64,000 nt of DNA from a virus: IMG/VR virus record IMGVR_UViG_3300016669_000002, one strand, 5' to 3'. Shown piece by piece: positions 142 to 37,803 of this stretch. Positions within the stretch are counted from its first letter, which is position 1. Each line of letters opens with the position of its first letter. A model generated the notes under the pieces. That model did no database searches and was not told where the DNA came from. It was given only the letters and a program-made list of their open reading frames with translations. Position numbers and translations under genes: made by a program.

Positions 142-1705
142 ATTTATGTTTAATTAAATCGTATATACGAATTAGTCTTCTCATATCAGCGTTTGTTTCG
201 AATTTATCTTGACTTAAAGTTTGTCTCAAAAAATCGCCAAGTTCTTCAATATTTTCTTTAGAGTAGTCAACAAGAGCAAGTTTGTATAACTTATCATTTG
301 TGTAGGACGTTGCTTTACTGACGGTCATGGACTCAGAAAGTGATTTCTTTTCTTTCTTCATTTTATCAGACAACATTTTTCGTACTGAATCAAACCTAGT
401 GAGATTGTTCCTTACAATCTTTGGTAACTGGGACCATTCGATATCTGCAGCTTTAATGTATTTCCTATACGGAAGATATCCGGCGGTTTTTTGTAGCAAT
501 AGTGGAATTGTTTCAGTGACTAAGAGTTCTGGCGCAAATTTAGCATCATCGAAAACAATGTCTTGAAATATTTCACTTTCATTAACAATTTGGTAACCAT
601 TTTTTGCGCGTTCTATCATCCCAAATCCATATACGAATTCGATATTTTCTAATTCATCTTTACTTAAATCTTCGTCAGGCAATGAGAGCATCATTCTATT
701 TTTCGGATCATTAGTTAATACTAGATTGTACATATCTTCTTTGACATATCTTAGCATTTTGATAGGGTATTTCGACCGGTTTTGTGCAAGTTGATCATAT
801 AGAATAGAATAATTATTAATGGAAATTTTCCTCATCGTTAAAGATCTACCTTTATCAAAAGTGATGGTATAGGTAGACTCTTTAAAGTTCGTTTCATTTG
901 AATCCCAAACTACATAAAAGAGCCTATCGGCTATAATAGATAGCTGATCATCCGTTAAACAAACCTGAATGTCTTCTAAAGTGTTTCGAATATCTTCATC
1001 ACCAATCGAATACCCAATAAAAAAAATTGGATGCTCTAAAAAAATGGTTAACAATTTAGCTGAGATATATTTATGTTTTTCTTCAATTTTTCTATAATCT
1101 GCAGAATTTATCAATATAGAATCTGCATATTTGGAGCAACCGTGAATTTTATATATCTCACCCAAATCAAATTTAGAATGGAATAATAATTCCTCTTGTG
1201 ATGTGTAAGTGTGATACCCAAAAATATTTTCAAGTAATGTGTCATAATTTGTTGTGATAATACCTGAAATAGAATTTGTTGATATATCTCTTAATGAATT
1301 AATTTCATTCTCTGTCCCAGGTATGTACTCTTCAAAGCTGTTTATGTACTCTGCTATCTCAATTTTTATAGGTGGTATGTTTTTTTGTCTAATTAAAGAT
1401 TCATATTCAATTCTATTTTTTTCAAATTTCTCATCAGTGTACCAAATTTTATCCAAATCGTCTGAGATAATATCACATAGAGCAGTCATATATTGATTAT
1501 ATTGATTTTTTTCATCATATTTTTTGGCTGCTTCATTTTTAGCCCTAATAAAGCCAAAATTATTCTCGTAAGTAATTGATGCAATGTACTCAAGCAATTC
1601 TTCCCAATTGGGTAGCCCCAAATATCTTCTCGAAAAACCAGAACCAATAAAAAGAAAGGGTAAGGAATCTGCTTTCTTAAGTAATGGCTCTAAGAAATCA
1701 TTCAT
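140..1705 (-). CDS. SIR2-family (SIR2_2-like) putative NADase, stand-alone, likely anti-phage effector
   Basis: Motifs LFIGSGFS, IITTNYD, YKIHGC, FFIGYSIGD typical of defence-associated sirtuins; AGGAGG RBS. Confidence 0.88.
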   Translation of the reverse strand: MNDFLEPLLKKADSLPFLFIGSGFSRRYLGLPNWEELLEYIASITYENNFGFIRAKNEAAKKYDEKNQYNQYMTALCDIISDDLDKIWYTDEKFEKNRIEYESLIRQKNIPPIKIEIAEYINSFEEYIPGTENEINSLRDISTNSISGIITTNYDTLLENIFGYHTYTSQEELLFHSKFDLGEIYKIHGCSKYADSILINSADYRKIEEKHKYISAKLLTIFLEHPIFFIGYSIGDEDIRNTLEDIQVCLTDDQLSIIADRLFYVVWDSNETNFKESTYTITFDKGRSLTMRKISINNYSILYDQLAQNRSKYPIKMLRYVKEDMYNLVLTNDPKNRMMLSLPDEDLSKDELENIEFVYGFGMIERAKNGYQIVNESEIFQDIVFDDAKFAPELLVTETIPLLLQKTAGYLPYRKYIKAADIEWSQLPKIVRNNLTRFDSVRKMLSDKMKKEKKSLSESMTVSKATSYTNDKLYKLALVDYSKENIEELGDFLRQTLSQDKFETNADMRRLIRIYDLIKHK

Positions 1706-1750
1706 AATATTTCTCCTCCTAAATATGATATATTATTTTTGTAATATGAA

Positions 1751-1796
1751 AGTCCTATTTCAGCTCCCCAGCTATGAAGTAGGGCTATTTTATTTT
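1751..1796 (+). terminator. Hairpin plus T-run between the SIR2 and Zn-ribbon/PH genes (terminates plus-strand transcription)
   Basis: agtcctatttca 1751-1762 pairs with tgaagtagggct 1775-1786, then attttatttt. Confidence 0.6.
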
Positions 1797-2289
1797 ATAA
1801 ATCAACTCGATAATCAATTTTACTTCTTGTTTGATAGTTTTGAGTTGCAGCACGAATCTGGTCTTTGATTTCATATGGATTCTGTAACTGCTTAAATATT
1901 ACTTCTCTACCATCATTTAAATTTAAAACAATGTGGCCAATTTTTAAAACTTTCTCTTTTAGTCCTTGTTTAACATCAATTTTATTAATGTCACCAAGTT
2001 CGATTTCTTCACGCTTAGTGGTTAAATTCTTTCGTTCTAGCAATATACGTTGGTTAGTAAGCGTATAGTTAACTCGTGGTAATGATAGGTCAATTTTTCC
2101 GGCAAAATTTTGCTTTTTATCTTCCATACCAAAAAGATGAGTCGAGAAAGTAGCAATTGTTTCTTCTTTATTTAAGCTCTCGTGTTTATTACTTGCATCA
2201 GTGGTAATACCACCATCAACTTTAAAACCGCAATTAGAACAGAACTTCATACCTTCAATATTATTCCCACATTCTGGACAGAACTTCAT
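1795..2289 (-). CDS. Zinc-ribbon plus bacterial PH-domain protein
   Basis: N-terminal CPECG...CSNCG; C-terminal YTLTNQRILL...I..I.VKQG...G.I.L PH-like pattern. Confidence 0.75.
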   Translation of the reverse strand: MKFCPECGNNIEGMKFCSNCGFKVDGGITTDASNKHESLNKEETIATFSTHLFGMEDKKQNFAGKIDLSLPRVNYTLTNQRILLERKNLTTKREEIELGDINKIDVKQGLKEKVLKIGHIVLNLNDGREVIFKQLQNPYEIKDQIRAATQNYQTRSKIDYRVDL

Positions 2290-2304
2290 TTTCTTTTCCT
2301 CCTA

Positions 2305-2706
2305 TTAACCTAATTTTCCACGCAATCTATACATATATATAGCACTTTCAACAATCTGATCAGGTAAATTCAAATCATCAGCAATCTCATATAAAAATAC
2401 AGCATCTTCAGACTGGTCGTATTTCGCTATATTTTCAACTGGAATTAACTTTGCATACGACCATCTACGTGCTGTTTCTTCTTCTTTAGCAAACATTTTG
2501 TAGTTAGTAATATTTTTCTGTGTTGAAGTTTCGTAGTGACCAATCTCTTCAGCAATGGCTGCTATCGAGTCTTTAAAACTCAATTTCTTATTGATATAGA
2601 CTGTTTTGTTAATAATTAATCCTGAAATACCTTCCGGCATATCATCCCTAAAATCAAAATTTAACTTATCTTCATACTTAGCAATTACTTTTTCAATTTC
2701 ATCCAT
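2305..2706 (-). CDS. ImmA/IrrE-family metallopeptidase (anti-repressor protease)
   Basis: AEEIGHY and EE.ARRW motifs; directly downstream of the repressor. Confidence 0.85.
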   Translation of the reverse strand: MDEIEKVIAKYEDKLNFDFRDDMPEGISGLIINKTVYINKKLSFKDSIAAIAEEIGHYETSTQKNITNYKMFAKEEETARRWSYAKLIPVENIAKYDQSEDAVFLYEIADDLNLPDQIVESAIYMYRLRGKLG

Positions 2707-25087: not shown

Positions 25088-26061
25088 TGGAACAAATCAT
25101 TGAAAAGATAAATTTTGGTGAATTTGACAGCCAAAAGCGTAAAATGCACTTGTTAGAACGGTCTGCCCCAACACCATCTAGAAAAGAGAAACGGGAATCG
25201 CTAGCGTATATGCAGGGTGATTACGATTTTTCTGGACTAGATGGCCAAGAGTATCACGAAAACCGTGAATTATCATACACATTTTACGTTTTAGAACGTG
25301 ATTATGAGTACAGAAAGCATAATCAGACGGTAATTGAAAATGAGTTGATGAGATATGGCGAAATACCGTTATATGACAGCTATTCAGTTGGGTATTACTA
25401 TCATGCGAAATGTATGGGGGTGCGTGTAACGGATGACCACTTATCCAATAGATTAATTATCGAAATTACTTTCAAAGGCTATCCATTCAAAACAAGTATT
25501 TTACCTGAAGGTCACGATCTCGTGGCCTTTATTAATGTTGACTTGGACGTACGACAGTATACTAACTTCAGTTTTAAATCTAAATGGTCTAACTTCAAGC
25601 AATTAAATGTTGGCGATATGGCTACCTATGGTGCATGGGCAACTCAATACTATGATCCGAATACCTCAACTGGTGGTGGCGCTAGCATTAATCCTAGATT
25701 TCATGGGATTACATATAGAATTGTGGATAAGATTGCGGTAAATATCTCTGATTTAAGGCCATCTAGATATGCTTATAAGCTAGCTAACTATGATGGCTGG
25801 CTACTAGAACAGGATATATTGCAAGCTCAAACGGAATTTTTGGATATCATCCTAGTAAATTCTGGAATTGCTGACGTACCACCTAAAATCACAACCAACC
25901 ACTCGGTTACAATTGTACGTGACAATGAAATTTACAACTTAATGCCCGGAATATACAAAACAGAACAATTCGTTTTAAAATCTGGTGAAAACAGCCTGCA
26001 ACTATATATTCCAAATGTTACTTTGAAGATTGATTTTACTTGGTATAAGGAGCTGATTTAA
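25075..26061 (+). CDS. Distal tail protein (Dit) with an internal SH3/GW-like insertion
   Basis: Follows the tape measure; Dit-like N- and C-termini; insert ending GWLLEQDI; start probably at 25087. Confidence 0.8.
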   Translation: MGWIMEQIIEKINFGEFDSQKRKMHLLERSAPTPSRKEKRESLAYMQGDYDFSGLDGQEYHENRELSYTFYVLERDYEYRKHNQTVIENELMRYGEIPLYDSYSVGYYYHAKCMGVRVTDDHLSNRLIIEITFKGYPFKTSILPEGHDLVAFINVDLDVRQYTNFSFKSKWSNFKQLNVGDMATYGAWATQYYDPNTSTGGGASINPRFHGITYRIVDKIAVNISDLRPSRYAYKLANYDGWLLEQDILQAQTEFLDIILVNSGIADVPPKITTNHSVTIVRDNEIYNLMPGIYKTEQFVLKSGENSLQLYIPNVTLKIDFTWYKELI

Positions 26062-27908
26062 TGTATCGTGTAACAATTTACGATGGACCAGATGACCCAG
26101 TTGGGGAACTTATACACATGGACGGTGCTAAAATTCGGAAAGCTCCTTTTAAGCTGCATTTGAAAAAAGAAGGTATTGATGATGTTTCAATAAAGATGAA
26201 TGTCAATAATCCCGGATGGCTAAAGATGCACCCAAAACGTACACTGATTGAAATTTACAATGAACGTACAGGTAACTATATTTTCAAGGGTAGAGTATTA
26301 AAGCCCACAAGAAAAATGAATGAAACTGGTATTTTTACGAAAACTTTTGCTTGTGAAGGTAGATTAGCCTATTTGCATGATTCAGAGCAAACTTGGGAGA
26401 AAGTACAAGATACTACCATTGCTGATTTTTTCAAAAAATTGATTGAAAATCATAATGAGCAAGTAGAGCCATACAAGCGTTTCAAATTCGGCCGTGTAAC
26501 AGTTAAAAGCAACACTAACAACGTTTATAGGTACATCGGATACGGTAGTACCTATGATGAAATAAAAGAGGACTTAATGGACTCTCTAGGCGGATATTTG
26601 CAGTTGCGTGATGAGCCAGACGGCACCTATATTGATTATCTCGAAGAAATTGGGGAAGTTCGAGAAGAACCTATTCATTTAAAAAATCGACTGCAATCTT
26701 TTGAAAGCGAAATTGACCCAACTGAAGTGATCACTAGAATTCGAGTGTTGGGCGCAACGATTGATGAAGAAACAGAAGAAGGCGCTGAAGAAACACAAGC
26801 GGTAAGTAGCCCTAGAATCACCATGGCTAGTGTGAATAACGGTCTTGATTATATTGTGGATGAAGCGCTTGAAAAGGAATTTGGTATACAATATGGAACA
26901 ATTATTTATGATGACGTCCGTGACCCTAATACCCTTTTAAATCGCGCCAAATCGTACAGAGATGCACAGCAATCAGCAAAAATAAGCTACTCAATTACAG
27001 CGTTAAACATTGACTTAATCAGAACTGATGTTGAAGCTTTGGTTCTAGGGGATACTTATCCAATTATGGCCAACATTGAATTTAACACAGTTGATTATTT
27101 GCAGATTGTTGAAATGACCATTGATTCTGAAAACTTACAGAAACACCAATTGACAGTCGGATCTACATTCAAGACTTTAACGCAATATCAAGCACTGCAA
27201 GCTAAACGTTTAACACAAGTGTACGCGCTGAAAGCAACAGTTGATAGGCAGTCTAGACAGTTGAATTTAGTTTCTTCTGGTCAAAAACAACTTTCGGAAC
27301 TGTACAATGCCGTTTCTGAAAATGCTGGTAAGGTACCAGATATCGAGAAACAACTAAAACAGATTTTAGAAAGCCTTGAAAATGGCGGTGGAAGTGATGT
27401 TGATGAAAACGGCTACTCAACAACCAGAGTATTCCCAGTCGACTACACTCTAGAGGGCGTTAACTATTTCGTTCGTGAAGGTAAATCACCAGGATCAATC
27501 GAATATGACATGACGTACGGCATGCGTGACGGCGTATTGCATAGCGGTCATGATATTGGTACTAATGGCGATAGAAACTACACAGCTCACGCAACGACTG
27601 ATGGCGTTGTCCGTAAAGCCGAATTTATGTCTGGCGGAATCGGTAACGCGGTGTACGTGGAACATACTGGTGACAAATATTGGTCTAACTACATGCACTT
27701 GAAATCAATCAGTGTAGCGGTTGGTCAGACGGTCAAAGCTGGTGACGTGATTGGTGTAATTGGTGGAACAGGCGGAGATTATGCGCCACATTTACATTAC
27801 GAGATTAGTCCTGATGGCAATTTCCATAGTTCCGGTAATACGGTCAATCCGCAAAGCTACTTGGGCATTACTGGGGACAATACAACAAGTTTGCCGAGAC
27901 CAGTTTAA
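26061..27908 (+). CDS. Tail-associated lysin (Tal) with C-terminal M23 peptidase
   Basis: Prophage-tail N-terminus; HSGHDIG, YMHL, HLHYEI M23 motifs. Confidence 0.9.
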   Translation: MYRVTIYDGPDDPVGELIHMDGAKIRKAPFKLHLKKEGIDDVSIKMNVNNPGWLKMHPKRTLIEIYNERTGNYIFKGRVLKPTRKMNETGIFTKTFACEGRLAYLHDSEQTWEKVQDTTIADFFKKLIENHNEQVEPYKRFKFGRVTVKSNTNNVYRYIGYGSTYDEIKEDLMDSLGGYLQLRDEPDGTYIDYLEEIGEVREEPIHLKNRLQSFESEIDPTEVITRIRVLGATIDEETEEGAEETQAVSSPRITMASVNNGLDYIVDEALEKEFGIQYGTIIYDDVRDPNTLLNRAKSYRDAQQSAKISYSITALNIDLIRTDVEALVLGDTYPIMANIEFNTVDYLQIVEMTIDSENLQKHQLTVGSTFKTLTQYQALQAKRLTQVYALKATVDRQSRQLNLVSSGQKQLSELYNAVSENAGKVPDIEKQLKQILESLENGGGSDVDENGYSTTRVFPVDYTLEGVNYFVREGKSPGSIEYDMTYGMRDGVLHSGHDIGTNGDRNYTAHATTDGVVRKAEFMSGGIGNAVYVEHTGDKYWSNYMHLKSISVAVGQTVKAGDVIGVIGGTGGDYAPHLHYEISPDGNFHSSGNTVNPQSYLGITGDNTTSLPRPV

Positions 27909-27922
27909 AAAGGAGGATAAGA

Positions 27923-28171
27923 ATGAAAGTTTATAAAATTTCACCAACCTATTATGATCGGGAAATGACCAATACTGTCATTGTTGTAGCTGAAAATAAA
28001 GAGCAAGCATTGAGTATTGCAAAAAAAGGGAACCCTTTTGATGAAAAAGTTCCCTTTGAAGTTAGAGATAAAATAATTTGGTGGAAGTATGAAGATAAAC
28101 AGTACCCCTTAGTAATAGATGAAATAGATTTAAATGTTGCTCAGGTTCTGGTTGCTGAATGGATTGAATAG
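27923..28171 (+). CDS. 82-aa hypothetical protein abutting the antisense HEPN-like gene
   Basis: AGGAGG RBS; stop at 28169-28171 is directly adjacent to the opposite-strand stop at 28172-28174. Confidence 0.7.
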   Translation: MKVYKISPTYYDREMTNTVIVVAENKEQALSIAKKGNPFDEKVPFEVRDKIIWWKYEDKQYPLVIDEIDLNVAQVLVAEWIE

Positions 28172-28942
28172 TTAGAAATTATATTCAATTTCCTTACCTT
28201 CAACTAGAATGATTTCCGGAGCTTCTTTTATATGTTGATTTGTAAACGCCTTAATTGTGGGATTATAATTTAAACTCAAACCAAATTCTTTTCTTATGCT
28301 TAAAATTAACTCGTGTGCGATTTGTCTGACAGAGGATAGATGTAAGTGTTTATATGGATCATCCATGGACGCTAGTTCGTGGTTAGGTCCTCCTGGCTCT
28401 CTATATAACATACTAGAAATACCTTTAGATAATTTGTAAAAATTTTCTGGCAAGCTTTTATCTATATGGGCCCCTCCATCTTTGTTAGCTACATAGGTGA
28501 TTAATTGCCGTCTGCTAAAAGCATTTGGGTTACTCGTCAAAACGTTTTGATCATACCAAGACTGAAAATCTATCCATTTTTTAGTTTTTGTTTTTGTAAA
28601 TGCAGGAATAAACCAAGGTTCACTTACAAAATCATTAGAATTATCTTGGAAAATTACTTCTGTCGGCATGACTAAACCAAGCTGATAAACTACATTTTTC
28701 GGAGAAGAGACAGTTGTCAAAAATTTCATTGTTTCTTTTTTATTCAATAATGAAAGTAAACTCGTAGAAGTTCTTGTGTCATGTACTAATACACGCACAT
28801 TAGTAGCAATTTGTTTTGCATATTTTACATTACCAGTATCAAACTGTTTGCAATTATTAATTAAAAATTCTAATTGCTCCTCTAAGGCACTAACATAATC
28901 TGAATATTCACGCTCAATTTCTAATTCCCTCAAATATAACAC
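28172..28942 (-). CDS. Putative HEPN-like protein (antisense moron in the tail module)
   Basis: SRRQLITYVANKDGGAHID motif; own RBS (AGGAGGT, likely TTG start at 28933) and extended -10 TGgTATACT (28959-28967). Confidence 0.6.
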   Translation of the reverse strand: MLYLRELEIEREYSDYVSALEEQLEFLINNCKQFDTGNVKYAKQIATNVRVLVHDTRTSTSLLSLLNKKETMKFLTTVSSPKNVVYQLGLVMPTEVIFQDNSNDFVSEPWFIPAFTKTKTKKWIDFQSWYDQNVLTSNPNAFSRRQLITYVANKDGGAHIDKSLPENFYKLSKGISSMLYREPGGPNHELASMDDPYKHLHLSSVRQIAHELILSIRKEFGLSLNYNPTIKAFTNQHIKEAPEIILVEGKEIEYNF

Positions 28943-29040
28943 CTCCTTTCTTAAAAGGAGTATACCAAATAAATAATATGTAAAGACCTCAAATCTAATT
29001 TGTGGTCTTTTTTAATACAAAAATAAAGGAGCTGATAAAT

Positions 29041-31056
29041 TTGGCAGATGAACAAAACATACCTTTGAGCGTACTTAGATCGTATAGTCCACATCCCGAT
29101 AAATTGGATTTAACTGGACTTACTCAAGATGAAATTACTCACGGCATTAAATCGAGTAAATTACCAGACTATATTCGATATAAGCAATACTTGACTGATA
29201 CCAACGAGGCTTTAGCTCAACTAGCTGAAATGATAATCCAATTTGCGGTTAATTTAGGGTTAGACCCAGACCAGACATTAGATTGGGCTAGAAAATTACA
29301 GCAAGCATTACCGCAATCAGAATTTGACAGTTGGGTAGCAACACTGCTAGACGGTGGCCCATCCATTTTTATGAACACGCTGATTGAATTACAAACAACA
29401 TATCCTAACGGTGCAGCAGGGGTCGCTTTGGTTAGAGAAACCGATCCAGCTAGAATTTATGTGTGGAACGGTACAGCATGGGAAGATTTTGGAGCTTATC
29501 AGGGAATTGAAGTTAAGGACGGTAGCATCACGTCAAGTAAGATTGCTGATGGTTCGATAAGTATGACAAAACTTGACTACATATCCATCGGTCAACGCAA
29601 TATTTTTGATAAAACGAAAATCACACCTGAAACATACATTGTTGAAAACGGTGGTACTTTTCCAATCACTGGATTTAGCTCTAGTGATTTTATGAGCGTA
29701 ACAGCAAATCAACAATTATGGATTTCAGATGACCAAACTTACGCGTTTTATGACACTAATAAAAATTTAATTTCTTGGTTTAATGGGGGTTGGGATAATG
29801 CAACTAATACACATATCTTAACTGTGCCAAACAACCAAAACATAAGCTACATAAGAGTATCACTCAAAGACCCAGAAACTTTTATGGTTTTGGATACGCC
29901 AGTTGCGCCTACCGAATATAAAGCGTTCGGCACTTTTGATTTTGATTTTAAGGACGATAATGTCAGAGATAATTTTAAAGATGCGCTAGAGCTTAGTGGT
30001 ACAATACCGATGTTAAAGCCTGGACGCACCAATCTTTTTGATAAGTCAAAAGCGATTGACGGGTACTATGCTGCTAATAACACTGGTGCACAAGCGGCAC
30101 TTGCAAACACAACAATGACAGATTATATTGCAGTAAAGCCAGGCGCTGAAATGTGGTTCTCAAAAGATAACGACATTGCTTTTTATGATTTTAATAAAGT
30201 ATACGTGAGCGGTATTGTGGGTGGCTGGGGAAATTCTCAAGATATTAGTTTGCAAAATTATTTGACAATTCCTAATAACCGAAATATTGCATTTTTAAGA
30301 ACGGCATTTCCAATGGCGGAAAAAGAAACGGGCATGATTTTAGAAGGTTTTGAAAAACCGTTATCATACATACCTTACGGTTATGTTGATTACGAGTACG
30401 CAGACGATAGAATCGCAGAACTTTTCCCGAAAATGTCTGACATTAAACAAGTGTCAAATTTGACTGGAAAAAAATGGAATGCGATGGGCGATAGCATCAC
30501 ACGAGGCGCTTGGGCGTCTAAAAATTATATCCAGTATATTTCAGAAGCTACAGGCGTAATCGCCACAAACTATGGTGTTGATGGGACGATGATTTCAACG
30601 GAGTATAACTCTATGGGTGTCGGTATGGCTGAGAGATATGTAAATATGTCAGATGATGCTGATTATATCACGGTTTTCGGGGGCACAAACGACTGGGGTT
30701 TGGGGTTGGTTGAAATTGGCACTTGGGATGATGGGACATCTACAACCGTGTACGGGGCTATGCAGACCTTAATTACTGGTTTAATTAATAAATATCCTAC
30801 CAAAAAAATTGGCTTTATCTTACCTTTACCACGTCAAGTTATCAATGGAAATAACACTCTAGGAGATTTTGTAGCGGTTATCAAAGAAGTATGTGACCGA
30901 TACTCAATCCCAACTTTAGACTTGTACCATGGCAGCGGTATTATGCCGGGTATACCAGCCCACAAGACTGCTTTAATGCCAGATGGCACTCACCCAAATG
31001 CAGAAGGTCATCGAATTATTGCGACTAAAATTCAGAAATTTTTAGAAAGTTTGTAG
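29041..31056 (+). CDS. Tail fibre/spike with C-terminal SGNH/GDSL hydrolase
   Basis: Phage tail N-terminus (GGP...YPNG...YVWNG..W...G.YQ); GDSIT, GGTND, DGTHPN blocks; TTG start after AAGGAG (track ORF starts at 29002). Confidence 0.85.
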   Translation: MADEQNIPLSVLRSYSPHPDKLDLTGLTQDEITHGIKSSKLPDYIRYKQYLTDTNEALAQLAEMIIQFAVNLGLDPDQTLDWARKLQQALPQSEFDSWVATLLDGGPSIFMNTLIELQTTYPNGAAGVALVRETDPARIYVWNGTAWEDFGAYQGIEVKDGSITSSKIADGSISMTKLDYISIGQRNIFDKTKITPETYIVENGGTFPITGFSSSDFMSVTANQQLWISDDQTYAFYDTNKNLISWFNGGWDNATNTHILTVPNNQNISYIRVSLKDPETFMVLDTPVAPTEYKAFGTFDFDFKDDNVRDNFKDALELSGTIPMLKPGRTNLFDKSKAIDGYYAANNTGAQAALANTTMTDYIAVKPGAEMWFSKDNDIAFYDFNKVYVSGIVGGWGNSQDISLQNYLTIPNNRNIAFLRTAFPMAEKETGMILEGFEKPLSYIPYGYVDYEYADDRIAELFPKMSDIKQVSNLTGKKWNAMGDSITRGAWASKNYIQYISEATGVIATNYGVDGTMISTEYNSMGVGMAERYVNMSDDADYITVFGGTNDWGLGLVEIGTWDDGTSTTVYGAMQTLITGLINKYPTKKIGFILPLPRQVINGNNTLGDFVAVIKEVCDRYSIPTLDLYHGSGIMPGIPAHKTALMPDGTHPNAEGHRIIATKIQKFLESL

Positions 31057-34673: not shown

Positions 34674-34866
34674 GAGTTCACACTTGAGTTCACACTTTTT
34701 TGTTTTTTATTGTCATTCTTTTACAACTGTTTTGTCCAAAACCCTATTAAATCAAGGTTTTCAATTTTCTTTAACGTTCTTTTTGTACTTATTTATGCCG
34801 AATGCAGGAATATGAATTGTTGTCATATCAACGTTTGTAAAGGGTGAGTTCACATGGTGTTCACAT
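34674..34866. other. attP: arm-type repeats flanking a core resembling a tRNA 3' end
   Basis: GAGTTCACAC x2 (34674, 34686); GAGTTCACAT/GTGTTCACAT (34846, 34857); core 34796-34811 reads ATTCCTGCATTCGGCA on the minus strand. Confidence 0.75.
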
Positions 34867-35950
34867 GTTGCTCTGTGTTTTCTAAAATCTCGATTACCTT
34901 TGTATCTTGTTGCTGCTTAAATTCATTGAGTATGTGGGCATAAGTCTTAAGCGTTTCAATGGTGCTAGCGTGGCCTAATCGCTTGCTGATGTAATTAATA
35001 TCAATACCATTATAGATCAGGTAGCTACAATGTGTATGACGTAGTCCATGGATACCACAAAATTCTATCGATAAACTCTCACATAGTTTCTTTAAGTATT
35101 TTCTAATTGCAGTATCAGTAATTACTGGGTTTTCAAATTTATCCAAGAATAAAAACTTAGGTGACTGTGATTGAAACTTTAGTTTATATTCAAATATATG
35201 TTTCTTAAAAGTATCAGTAATTTTAATTTTACGAATACTTGTCTTTGTCTTACCTGCAGTAAATGTTTTACTTGCAGTATAATCATAACCACGATTTACC
35301 TCTAATACATTTCCGTGGATATCATCCCATGATAATCCATATATCTCGCCAAGACGTAAACCAGTATTGATAGCAATATATAGCGCTGTACTTCTAGGCG
35401 TTAATTCATCTTGAAACGCTTTTGTTAATAGTTCGCCGTCATGGATATTCCAAGCCTTAATTCTTGATTGCTGATCATTATCGTAGCTAATCACAACATT
35501 GAAAGTAGGGTCAACCTGTATCAGATTATCAGCTAAAGCCATTTGAATAGCTTGTTTTAATCTGAAATGTGTTTTTTCAACGGTATTTCTAGCTCTATTT
35601 TTGCCTCTTATATTAATAAACGTCTGATACCGTTGCCTGGTCAATAGCTTTAAGGGTAAATTACCAAAATACTCATGTACTAATTTTATAAGGTGTTTAT
35701 ACTCTTTGATAACTTTATCAGTTATCATAGTTTCTTTATATGTATAAAACCATTTCTCAAAGTAATTAGCAAAGGGCATATCAGCATTAATATCGTAAGT
35801 AATTTCTTCTTGTTTAGTGCCATAAATTTGAGCCTCTTTTTTTGATTTGAAGCCTTTTTTCATCTTTTGATGTCTATTTCCTTTGTTATCGTAGACGTTA
35901 TATCTAACGTACCATTTATTGGTTTTAGGATCTTTATTAACGCTTGCCAT
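34850..35950 (-). CDS. int: Tyrosine integrase
   Basis: TGLRLGEIYGL, HGLRHTHCS, RLGHAS...TY catalytic residues; arm-binding N-terminus. Confidence 0.96.
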   Translation of the reverse strand: MASVNKDPKTNKWYVRYNVYDNKGNRHQKMKKGFKSKKEAQIYGTKQEEITYDINADMPFANYFEKWFYTYKETMITDKVIKEYKHLIKLVHEYFGNLPLKLLTRQRYQTFINIRGKNRARNTVEKTHFRLKQAIQMALADNLIQVDPTFNVVISYDNDQQSRIKAWNIHDGELLTKAFQDELTPRSTALYIAINTGLRLGEIYGLSWDDIHGNVLEVNRGYDYTASKTFTAGKTKTSIRKIKITDTFKKHIFEYKLKFQSQSPKFLFLDKFENPVITDTAIRKYLKKLCESLSIEFCGIHGLRHTHCSYLIYNGIDINYISKRLGHASTIETLKTYAHILNEFKQQQDTKVIEILENTEQHVNTM

Positions 35951-36128: not shown

Positions 36129-36239
36129 TGACAAAAGACATAGTGCTTTCTGTCCTTGCCTAACCATCATCGAACTAACCCTCTGGAGGTTTACACGTAC
36201 TAGTTCGTGTTTACTGAGTCCATGGTTAGTTCCTTTTTT
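36129..36239 (+). ncRNA. Copy 2 of the candidate small RNA
   Basis: Same as 31-141. Confidence 0.5.
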
Positions 36240-37803
36240 ATTTATGTTTAATTAAATCGTATATACGAATTAGTCTTCTCATATCAGCGTTTGTTTCGAA
36301 TTTATCTTGACTTAAAGTTTGTCTCAAAAAATCGCCAAGTTCTTCAATATTTTCTTTAGAGTAGTCAACAAGAGCAAGTTTGTATAACTTATCATTTGTG
36401 TAGGACGTTGCTTTACTGACGGTCATGGACTCAGAAAGTGATTTCTTTTCTTTCTTCATTTTATCAGACAACATTTTTCGTACTGAATCAAACCTAGTGA
36501 GATTGTTCCTTACAATCTTTGGTAACTGGGACCATTCGATATCTGCAGCTTTAATGTATTTCCTATACGGAAGATATCCGGCGGTTTTTTGTAGCAATAG
36601 TGGAATTGTTTCAGTGACTAAGAGTTCTGGCGCAAATTTAGCATCATCGAAAACAATGTCTTGAAATATTTCACTTTCATTAACAATTTGGTAACCATTT
36701 TTTGCGCGTTCTATCATCCCAAATCCATATACGAATTCGATATTTTCTAATTCATCTTTACTTAAATCTTCGTCAGGCAATGAGAGCATCATTCTATTTT
36801 TCGGATCATTAGTTAATACTAGATTGTACATATCTTCTTTGACATATCTTAGCATTTTGATAGGGTATTTCGACCGGTTTTGTGCAAGTTGATCATATAG
36901 AATAGAATAATTATTAATGGAAATTTTCCTCATCGTTAAAGATCTACCTTTATCAAAAGTGATGGTATAGGTAGACTCTTTAAAGTTCGTTTCATTTGAA
37001 TCCCAAACTACATAAAAGAGCCTATCGGCTATAATAGATAGCTGATCATCCGTTAAACAAACCTGAATGTCTTCTAAAGTGTTTCGAATATCTTCATCAC
37101 CAATCGAATACCCAATAAAAAAAATTGGATGCTCTAAAAAAATGGTTAACAATTTAGCTGAGATATATTTATGTTTTTCTTCAATTTTTCTATAATCTGC
37201 AGAATTTATCAATATAGAATCTGCATATTTGGAGCAACCGTGAATTTTATATATCTCACCCAAATCAAATTTAGAATGGAATAATAATTCCTCTTGTGAT
37301 GTGTAAGTGTGATACCCAAAAATATTTTCAAGTAATGTGTCATAATTTGTTGTGATAATACCTGAAATAGAATTTGTTGATATATCTCTTAATGAATTAA
37401 TTTCATTCTCTGTCCCAGGTATGTACTCTTCAAAGCTGTTTATGTACTCTGCTATCTCAATTTTTATAGGTGGTATGTTTTTTTGTCTAATTAAAGATTC
37501 ATATTCAATTCTATTTTTTTCAAATTTCTCATCAGTGTACCAAATTTTATCCAAATCGTCTGAGATAATATCACATAGAGCAGTCATATATTGATTATAT
37601 TGATTTTTTTCATCATATTTTTTGGCTGCTTCATTTTTAGCCCTAATAAAGCCAAAATTATTCTCGTAAGTAATTGATGCAATGTACTCAAGCAATTCTT
37701 CCCAATTGGGTAGCCCCAAATATCTTCTCGAAAAACCAGAACCAATAAAAAGAAAGGGTAAGGAATCTGCTTTCTTAAGTAATGGCTCTAAGAAATCATT
37801 CAT
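36238..37803 (-). CDS. SIR2-family protein (copy 2)
   Basis: Same translation as 140-1705. Confidence 0.88.
   Translation of the reverse strand: MNDFLEPLLKKADSLPFLFIGSGFSRRYLGLPNWEELLEYIASITYENNFGFIRAKNEAAKKYDEKNQYNQYMTALCDIISDDLDKIWYTDEKFEKNRIEYESLIRQKNIPPIKIEIAEYINSFEEYIPGTENEINSLRDISTNSISGIITTNYDTLLENIFGYHTYTSQEELLFHSKFDLGEIYKIHGCSKYADSILINSADYRKIEEKHKYISAKLLTIFLEHPIFFIGYSIGDEDIRNTLEDIQVCLTDDQLSIIADRLFYVVWDSNETNFKESTYTITFDKGRSLTMRKISINNYSILYDQLAQNRSKYPIKMLRYVKEDMYNLVLTNDPKNRMMLSLPDEDLSKDELENIEFVYGFGMIERAKNGYQIVNESEIFQDIVFDDAKFAPELLVTETIPLLLQKTAGYLPYRKYIKAADIEWSQLPKIVRNNLTRFDSVRKMLSDKMKKEKKSLSESMTVSKATSYTNDKLYKLALVDYSKENIEELGDFLRQTLSQDKFETNADMRRLIRIYDLIKHK

Follow-up and report, generated by a model that had tools for sequence, protein, structure and literature searches.

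The region 27910-29015 of IMG/VR virus record IMGVR_UViG_3300016669_000002, analyzed here as a stretch of 64,000 nucleotides (nt; hereafter the window), appears from its sequence to be a self-contained, horizontally mobile two-gene cassette located in the tail operon of a temperate phage. The cassette comprises a small plus-strand gene, encoding an acidic protein of 82 amino acids (aa), and a large gene in antisense orientation, encoding a 253-aa protein of the PHROG 7805 family. As the anatomy of the pair matches the logic of the Tha/Ith systems of staphylococcal phages, we tentatively propose, as a reading with a somewhat less than even chance of being correct, that the large protein is a lysogen-expressed HEPN-like effector and that its partner provides antisense transcription and possibly also an inhibitor protein.

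Anatomy and mobility of the cassette

The small gene (27923-28171, plus strand) and the large gene (28172-28933, minus strand) were both delineated from their open reading frames (ORFs) and homologs, the latter also from a profile match, and their stop codons abut with a 0-nt gap. The small gene is preceded by a ribosome-binding site (RBS), AAGGAGG, read from the sequence at 27910-27916 on the plus strand, 6 nt before the ATG and just past the stop codon at 27908 of the upstream tail-tip gene (Tal). For the large gene, the likely start is a TTG at 28933, which gives the 253-aa protein and is found 8 nt after an identical AAGGAGG (28942-28948, minus strand); the alternative, longer start, a GTG at 28942, falls within this RBS. 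Further upstream, sequence inspection revealed a predicted promoter element, the extended -10 TGGTATACT (28959-28967, minus strand), together with a -35-like hexamer, TTTACA, at 28984-28979, the spacer between the two being just 14 nt. The GC content is 0.30-0.34 over 28200-29000 as compared to 0.42-0.46 in the flanks, and the string RRQLITYVANKDGGAHID is present in the large gene. A preceding sequence-only reading of this DNA had described an AT-rich minus-strand ORF of about 253 aa between Tal and an SGNH tail gene, carrying its own extended -10, RBS and this motif string and abutting an 82-aa plus-strand gene stop to stop, and all of these features were recovered here from the ORFs, GC content, Pfam matches and direct inspection.

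A hairpin followed by a T-run, resembling a terminator for the small-gene (late) strand, was found at 28982-29015 on the plus strand (-11 kcal/mol, z -4.5, with 0 of 200 shuffled sequences as good), just past the large-gene promoter. Because this element lies beyond that promoter, a transcript of the small gene would run antisense through the complete large gene as well as the promoter of the latter before stopping. A leader hairpin that could sequester the large-gene RBS (28960-28943), flagged as terminator-like, was also considered; its 5' arm overlaps the -10 element and would not be transcribed from that promoter, for which reason the idea was dropped. No tandem or direct repeats of note, no Rfam matches and no RNA repeats of type III toxin-antitoxin systems were found in the region.

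The ratio of nonsynonymous to synonymous substitution rates (dN/dS) of both genes is 0.15-0.25 (0.18-0.22 for the small gene), corresponding to purifying selection, and the best homologs were retrieved with E-values down to 1e-154 for the large gene and 6e-35 for the small gene, indicating that both are real genes.

The view that the antisense gene is an inserted, AT-rich cargo gene with its own promoter is supported by a comparison with BUCT702 (L001, OM735687.1, 4658-9077), which does not contain the segment from 28172 to approximately 29026 between otherwise conserved flanks. In this phage, the nucleotide identity to the window is about 85% over the C-terminal part of Tal and about 97% at the beginning of the tail gene downstream, resuming exactly at the RBS of the latter, and the small gene is represented by a homolog of 35% aa identity. 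The cassette resembles the morons of lambdoid late operons, and the related reverse morons, noncontiguous operons and excludons, in that an AT-rich segment with a predicted promoter and terminator of its own is inserted between two late genes and is absent from BUCT702. It differs from morons in that it is a two-gene convergent unit, with a terminator for the strand that does not carry the cargo gene.

The convergent pair is kept in seven diverged lineages (the window with L005, L006, L007-10, L011, L012, L013/L038 and L014), in which the two stop codons are separated by gaps of 0-9 nt or overlap by 14-15 nt. The identity of the large protein to that of the window decreases from 93% in L005 through 72% in L006 (Aerococcus sp. 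L_32) to 49% in L007-10, each with a 0-nt gap, and further to 47% in L012 (1-nt gap) and 44% in L011 (9-nt gap). Searching with the small protein led to two viral contigs and a prophage of Bacillus sp. AG1163, where a large gene with 35% identity overlaps the small gene by 14-15 nt. All close homologs of the large gene with a readable context were found to face a homolog of the small gene, and the small proteins are mutually homologous.

The strongest evidence that the pair moves as a cassette comes from the mosaic pattern of identities around it. In L006, the tape measure protein, Dit and Tal are 92-98% identical to their counterparts in the window, whereas the pair shares just 61% (small) and 72% (large) identity; in L005, Dit and Tal are only about 50% identical and the pair 96% and 93%, respectively. 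In L007-L014 the flanks are unrelated and the pair is still kept. The position of the pair also varies: in the window it comes after Tal, in L038 it is enclosed by a GDSL protein and Tal, and in L011 it is located downstream of a Dit-like gene. Elements resembling a -10 were also found upstream of the large gene in L005, L006, L011, L013 and L014, and the far-side hairpin with its T-run occurs on the small-gene strand at the same position in six lineages (the window, L007, L011, L013, L014 and L035). On a tree of the large family, the paired state corresponds to five changes, at least three of which are forced, and a single origin is not demonstrable.

Families, motifs and predicted folds of the two proteins

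The large protein gave no match in Pfam, NCBIfam or PADLOC, apart from weak Pfam matches to TetR_C_37 and Arb2 that were treated as noise. It matched PHROG 7805, a group of unknown function, with an E-value of 4.1e-39 (protein residues 9-219 against positions 7-213 of the 218-position profile). The family is very large: an exhaustive HMMER search listed 3000 cluster representatives with E<=1e-3, of which 1466 reached E<=1e-10, and a single-motif scan found relatives distributed sporadically over 210 species-representative genomes from most bacterial phyla and some methanogens. A SEC-C zinc motif, as found in the tail of SecA, ends about one third of the relatives listed in the first homology search (P0020-P0066 and others; L062), and this tail may point to an association of the large family with the ribosome or SecB. 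A profile search of the PDB with the family matched just the SEC-C tail of these fused relatives.

The alignment of the large family revealed several conserved elements: R47-x3-H51-D-T and S56-x-S58 where helix 2 ends, W126, R141 where helix 3 begins, N150-K-D-G-G-A-H156-x-D158 in the loop after this helix, and R203-Q-I-x-x-E208 early in the last long helix. At least 90% of the members conserve R203, Q204 and E208, while H156 is invariant and H51 nearly so. The sequence-only reading had taken NKDGGAH for a degenerate form of the Rx4-6H motif of HEPN RNases, an assignment that did not hold, as this string sits in the loop after helix 3 and the positional equivalent of the motif is R203-QIA-H207. 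The histidines H156 (within NKDGGAH) and H51 could nevertheless, judging from their conservation, be candidates for an alternative catalytic histidine.

The AlphaFold model of the large protein (predicted local distance difference test score, pLDDT, 87.7; predicted template modelling score 0.89) consists of four long helices with a beta-rich insert of about 80 residues (71-140) between helices 2 and 3. In an exhaustive structural search, proteins of the HEPN/KNTase_C clan accounted for eight of the top ten matches and approximately 21 of the top 41, the likeness being weak, and included an MNT-associated HEPN toxin, AF0298 (2hsb), SO_3166, Csm6, TT1696 (1ufb), AbiV (9bj5) and Las1. LinB (3jyy) was also among the matches. 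Foldseek searches against the PDB and the Swiss-Prot models retrieved nothing, the AFDB clusters contained just uncharacterized relatives of the large protein, and searches of the ESM Atlas by features and by shape were uninformative.

Based on the model, the core of the large protein looks like a variant HEPN domain of the AbiV/AF0298 type, in which helix 4 begins with a conserved arginine and a polar residue next to it, and conserved histidines are found in other places. Inserts between helices 2 and 3 are frequent in HEPN domains, and AbiV/AF0298-type members retain the arginine and employ an alternative histidine located upstream (PMC3710099); among AbiV relatives, the arginine, the histidine or their spacing are not always retained (bioRxiv 10.1101/2024.05.05.592566). 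Like AbiV from Lactococcus and AF0298, the large protein would be a stand-alone protein of approximately 200-250 aa in which an insert separates helices 2 and 3 of the HEPN core, with the arginine kept, the motif histidine variable and another conserved histidine upstream (PMC3710099; bioRxiv 10.1101/2024.05.05.592566). AF0298, TT1696 and LinB are furthermore the structural neighbors reported for AbiV itself (bioRxiv 10.1101/2024.05.05.592566). On the other side, the large protein has no sequence-profile match to this group, its insert forms a beta-rich domain some 80 residues long, and the antitoxin of AbiV is an RNA encoded alongside, whereas no such RNA or repeat was seen here.

The small protein has an isoelectric point of 4.8 and a predicted beta-beta-alpha-alpha-beta fold (AlphaFold pLDDT 70). 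Homologs of its gene were found in 48 clusters, and five of nine family members matched PHROG 5444, likewise of unknown function (best E-value 7.9e-9). Weak Pfam matches to DUF3906 and DUF1381 were treated as noise, the structure search with its model gave weak, generic matches to small phage proteins, and a pattern scan for the small gene in the species-representative genomes found nothing. The idea that the small protein is a structural protein of the virion or tail was set aside, because distant homologs are found among early genes and the gene travels together with its large partner, not with the tail genes.

Proposed function and alternative explanations

Tha-1/Ith-1 and Tha-2/Ith-2 were described from the Staphylococcus aureus temperate phages 80alpha and phiNM2, where head-on transcription and the Ith protein shut off the HEPN effector upon induction and phages carrying ith escape Tha (Rostol et al. 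2024, PMC11087260). There, as in the present cassette with its HEPN-like gene, a small convergent gene meets or overlaps the 3' end of the larger gene in a temperate phage, ith-1 (1525-1725, plus strand) and tha-1 (1662-2567, minus strand) of 80alpha overlapping by 64 nt, and the mutually exclusive expression achieved by head-on transcription and a protein inhibitor is what we propose here as well. The analogy to this system drawn in the sequence-only reading thus stands as regards the convergent geometry, but it does not extend to homology, as hhalign gave probabilities of only 0.14% for the large protein against Tha-1 and 0.30% for the small protein against Ith-1. In addition, the roles are swapped: tha is part of the cI lysogeny operon and is faced by ith as an intruding antisense gene that brings its own promoter, whereas here it is the HEPN-like gene that intrudes in antisense, into a late tail operon; and Tha has a canonical R-x4-H motif, which the PHROG 7805 family does not.

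In the proposed mechanism, the antisense gene would be transcribed from its own extended -10, so that its product could be made in the lysogen, where it would act as a latent RNase-type toxin or abortive-infection effector protecting the lysogen. The late transcript of the small gene would cross the effector gene and its promoter in antisense, in most lineages up to the cassette terminator, and late or lytic transcription would shut down the effector gene in two ways, through head-on transcription and through antisense RNA. The small protein might in turn neutralize effector that is already present, preventing self-targeting during induction, and orphan small genes could serve as counter-defense in trans.

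A different explanation is that the two genes are joined by physical linkage alone: the large gene would be reverse-oriented cargo and the small gene an independent one, serving as an accessory or counter-defense gene against a host system or as a tail-assembly helper, and their adjacency would persist owing to recombination breakpoints located within the conserved flanks. We consider this possible, though rather unlikely. In its favor, the conserved sequences on either side, in the M23 domain of Tal and the N-terminal part of the following tail gene, could turn the pair into a single recombination unit, and a series of observations weighs against a functional pairing. The small gene is retained next to a truncated or deleted large gene in Aerococcus urinaeequi and BUCT702, with a dN/dS of 0.07 that corresponds to strong constraint: in contigs of the former species it faces a 123-aa antisense remnant (L035 3759-4130, and also in L036 and L037) that is still recognized by the family hidden Markov model (1.6e-17), from which the KDGGAH and RQI motifs are gone and next to which the intact small gene and the far-side terminator remain. 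More distant, 76-aa homologs of the small gene stand alone among early genes, upstream of the terminases. Since the small gene is constrained where no intact large gene is present and its distant homologs occur alone, it may serve a function that does not involve the large gene.

Conversely, the small gene is missing even beside members of the large family that are 42-43% identical to the window protein, and it was not found with 16 more distant viral homologs (26-36% identity) or with J-1 gp25, BrayBeast gp28, JuJu gp33, P0124, P0127 and P0128; at P0123, all neighbors are co-directional. The named phage members of PHROG 7805, from the Lactobacillus phages J-1, PL-1 and PLE2, the Arthrobacter phage BrayBeast and the Gordonia phage JuJu, differ from the cassette in being located near integrases or immunity regions without a small partner. 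Several distant phage homologs of the large gene are reverse-oriented single genes inserted next to late genes of unrelated prophages (Mu gp45, Mu gp37, TerL, or a small-terminase/portal pair), and others lie near integrases, the reverse-oriented examples being found at L015 2932-3579, L018 2983-3606, L022 2935-3663 and L034 3001-3774. In bacterial genomes the large family has no fixed neighbor, its surroundings including integrases, PIN and Mrr proteins, a type I methylase and a STAND NTPase. As most of the family is found without the small gene, the small protein is not a general requirement of the large one. The co-occurrence of the two genes, which the sequence-only reading had named as a check, was thus borne out in the sense that the pair is conserved and co-transferred, but not as a strict association in either direction. 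Transcription of the small gene raises a further difficulty for the proposed effector-partner reading. No promoter of its own was found for the small gene in the window, where it relies on upstream transcription; expression solely with the late operon, as the sequence-only reading had claimed, agrees with this but not with L014 and L012, in which a TG-TATAAT promoter specific to the small gene is present. Moreover, the terminator-like element is placed midway through the tail operon, ahead of the other tail genes and the lysis genes. Against mere linkage, on the other hand, the pair survives in tail modules without detectable similarity and at differing positions, nearly all close homologs of the small gene that were examined adjoin a homolog of the large gene or its remnant, the abutment or overlap of the stop codons persists over identities ranging from 96% to 35%, and the far-side terminator makes sense just for a single transcriptional unit.

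The pair could also be a toxin-antitoxin-like addiction or selfish module that stabilizes the prophage or itself without acting against other phages. The toxin-like fold of the large protein, the mobility of the two-gene unit and its sporadic distribution would agree with such a role, and decay of the large gene with retention of the small one is the usual fate of toxin-antitoxin pairs. However, with the presumed antidote lacking its own promoter in the window and located in the late operon, a lysogen would hold toxin without antitoxin; in contrast to type II and type III systems, the genes are convergent rather than arranged in a co-directional, autoregulated operon with an upstream antitoxin, and tandem RNA repeats are absent; and most family members stand alone. 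We therefore regard an addiction module as distinctly improbable. Somewhat less so, but still unlikely, is that the large protein is neither a nuclease nor a defense effector and instead acts as a regulator, a lysogenic-conversion factor or a ribosome- or Sec-associated factor, its likeness to HEPN proteins reflecting a generic four-helix bundle. The HEPN assignment made in the sequence-only reading is favored by the best structural matches, which belong to this superfamily, but no profile agrees with it: the HEPN and defense profiles of Pfam, NCBIfam and PADLOC matched none of 65 family members. The canonical Rx4-6H motif is also absent, R203-Q-I-A-H207-E of helix 4 having a spacing of three, and H207 varies between histidine, tyrosine and phenylalanine among the members. 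Speaking for an effector, HEPN-clan proteins are strongly enriched over other helical bundles in the top matches, the invariant arginine, histidine, aspartate and serine residues form a constellation that looks like an enzyme site, and the genomic behavior of the family is typical of conflict genes.

A wider reading, which as a whole we hold to be doubtful, albeit conceivable, is that the large protein represents an undescribed, pan-prokaryotic branch of HEPN-like RNases (more than 1,400 clusters, many of them fused to SEC-C) providing a one-gene abortive-infection defense; that in siphophages of Bacillota it is packaged with a small antidote, the mRNA of which doubles as a full-length antisense RNA to the effector gene and stops at a terminator of its own; and that orphan antidotes form a new counter-defense family. 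If this were true, a large unannotated family without a Pfam, NCBIfam or PADLOC model would join the effectors of phage defense, and the pair would constitute a second, non-homologous case of the Tha/Ith principle, in which a prophage effector is switched off by a facing small gene at the onset of growth. The location in a late tail operon and the built-in terminator would then be new, and the orphan small genes would be candidate counter-defense genes. R47, H51, R141, H156 and R203 can be named as candidate key residues. For annotation purposes, the cassette accounts for two hypothetical genes that recur as a pair in tail modules of prophages from Aerococcus and Bacillus.

The phage genome and its tail genes

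The window was found to represent a phage genome of approximately 36.1 kb read about 1.8 times, as the ORFs from position 140 onward repeat at +36,098; this recurrence fits a circularly joined or concatenated contig. Among public sequencing runs, a single metagenome, probably the source, contains the entire stretch, and no RNA dataset was listed for the cassette region. The phage is a temperate siphophage of Bacillota, encoding a tyrosine integrase (34850-35950), a CI-like helix-turn-helix repressor beside an ImmA-type peptidase, and an antirepressor, and its closest named relative originates from an Aerococcus genome.

To the left of the cassette, the Tal-type tail-tip gene (26061-27908, plus strand) encodes a protein with Pfam matches to Prophage_tail (1.3e-18) and Peptidase_M23 (7e-21). 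Its C-terminal M23 domain constitutes a conserved recombination flank, and from approximately 27400 onward the gene shares 80-90% nucleotide identity with L005, L006 and L001. To the right, a gene for a GDSL/SGNH tail protein (29041-31056, plus strand; Lipase_GDSL_2, 2.2e-18) probably starts at the TTG at 29041. This downstream tail gene is modular (window 29041-31056; L005 1322-4378; L006 3611-5893; L001 6798-9077), with a conserved N-terminal part (about 97% nucleotide identity to BUCT702) and an exchangeable C-terminal enzyme domain, which is of the GDSL/SGNH type in the window, BNR_4 in L005, and Peptidase_M14 in L006 and BUCT702.

BUCT702 and BUCT704, both deposited as Stenotrophomonas phages, share 85-97% nucleotide identity with the tail genes of the window, and their type of small gene recurs in assemblies of Aerococcus urinaeequi; the Gram-negative host recorded for these two phages looks doubtful. 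Finally, the lysogeny region of the window encodes a 521-aa protein with a SIR2_2 domain (140-1705 and, in the repeated part, 36238-37803), which is a second candidate defense gene of this phage.
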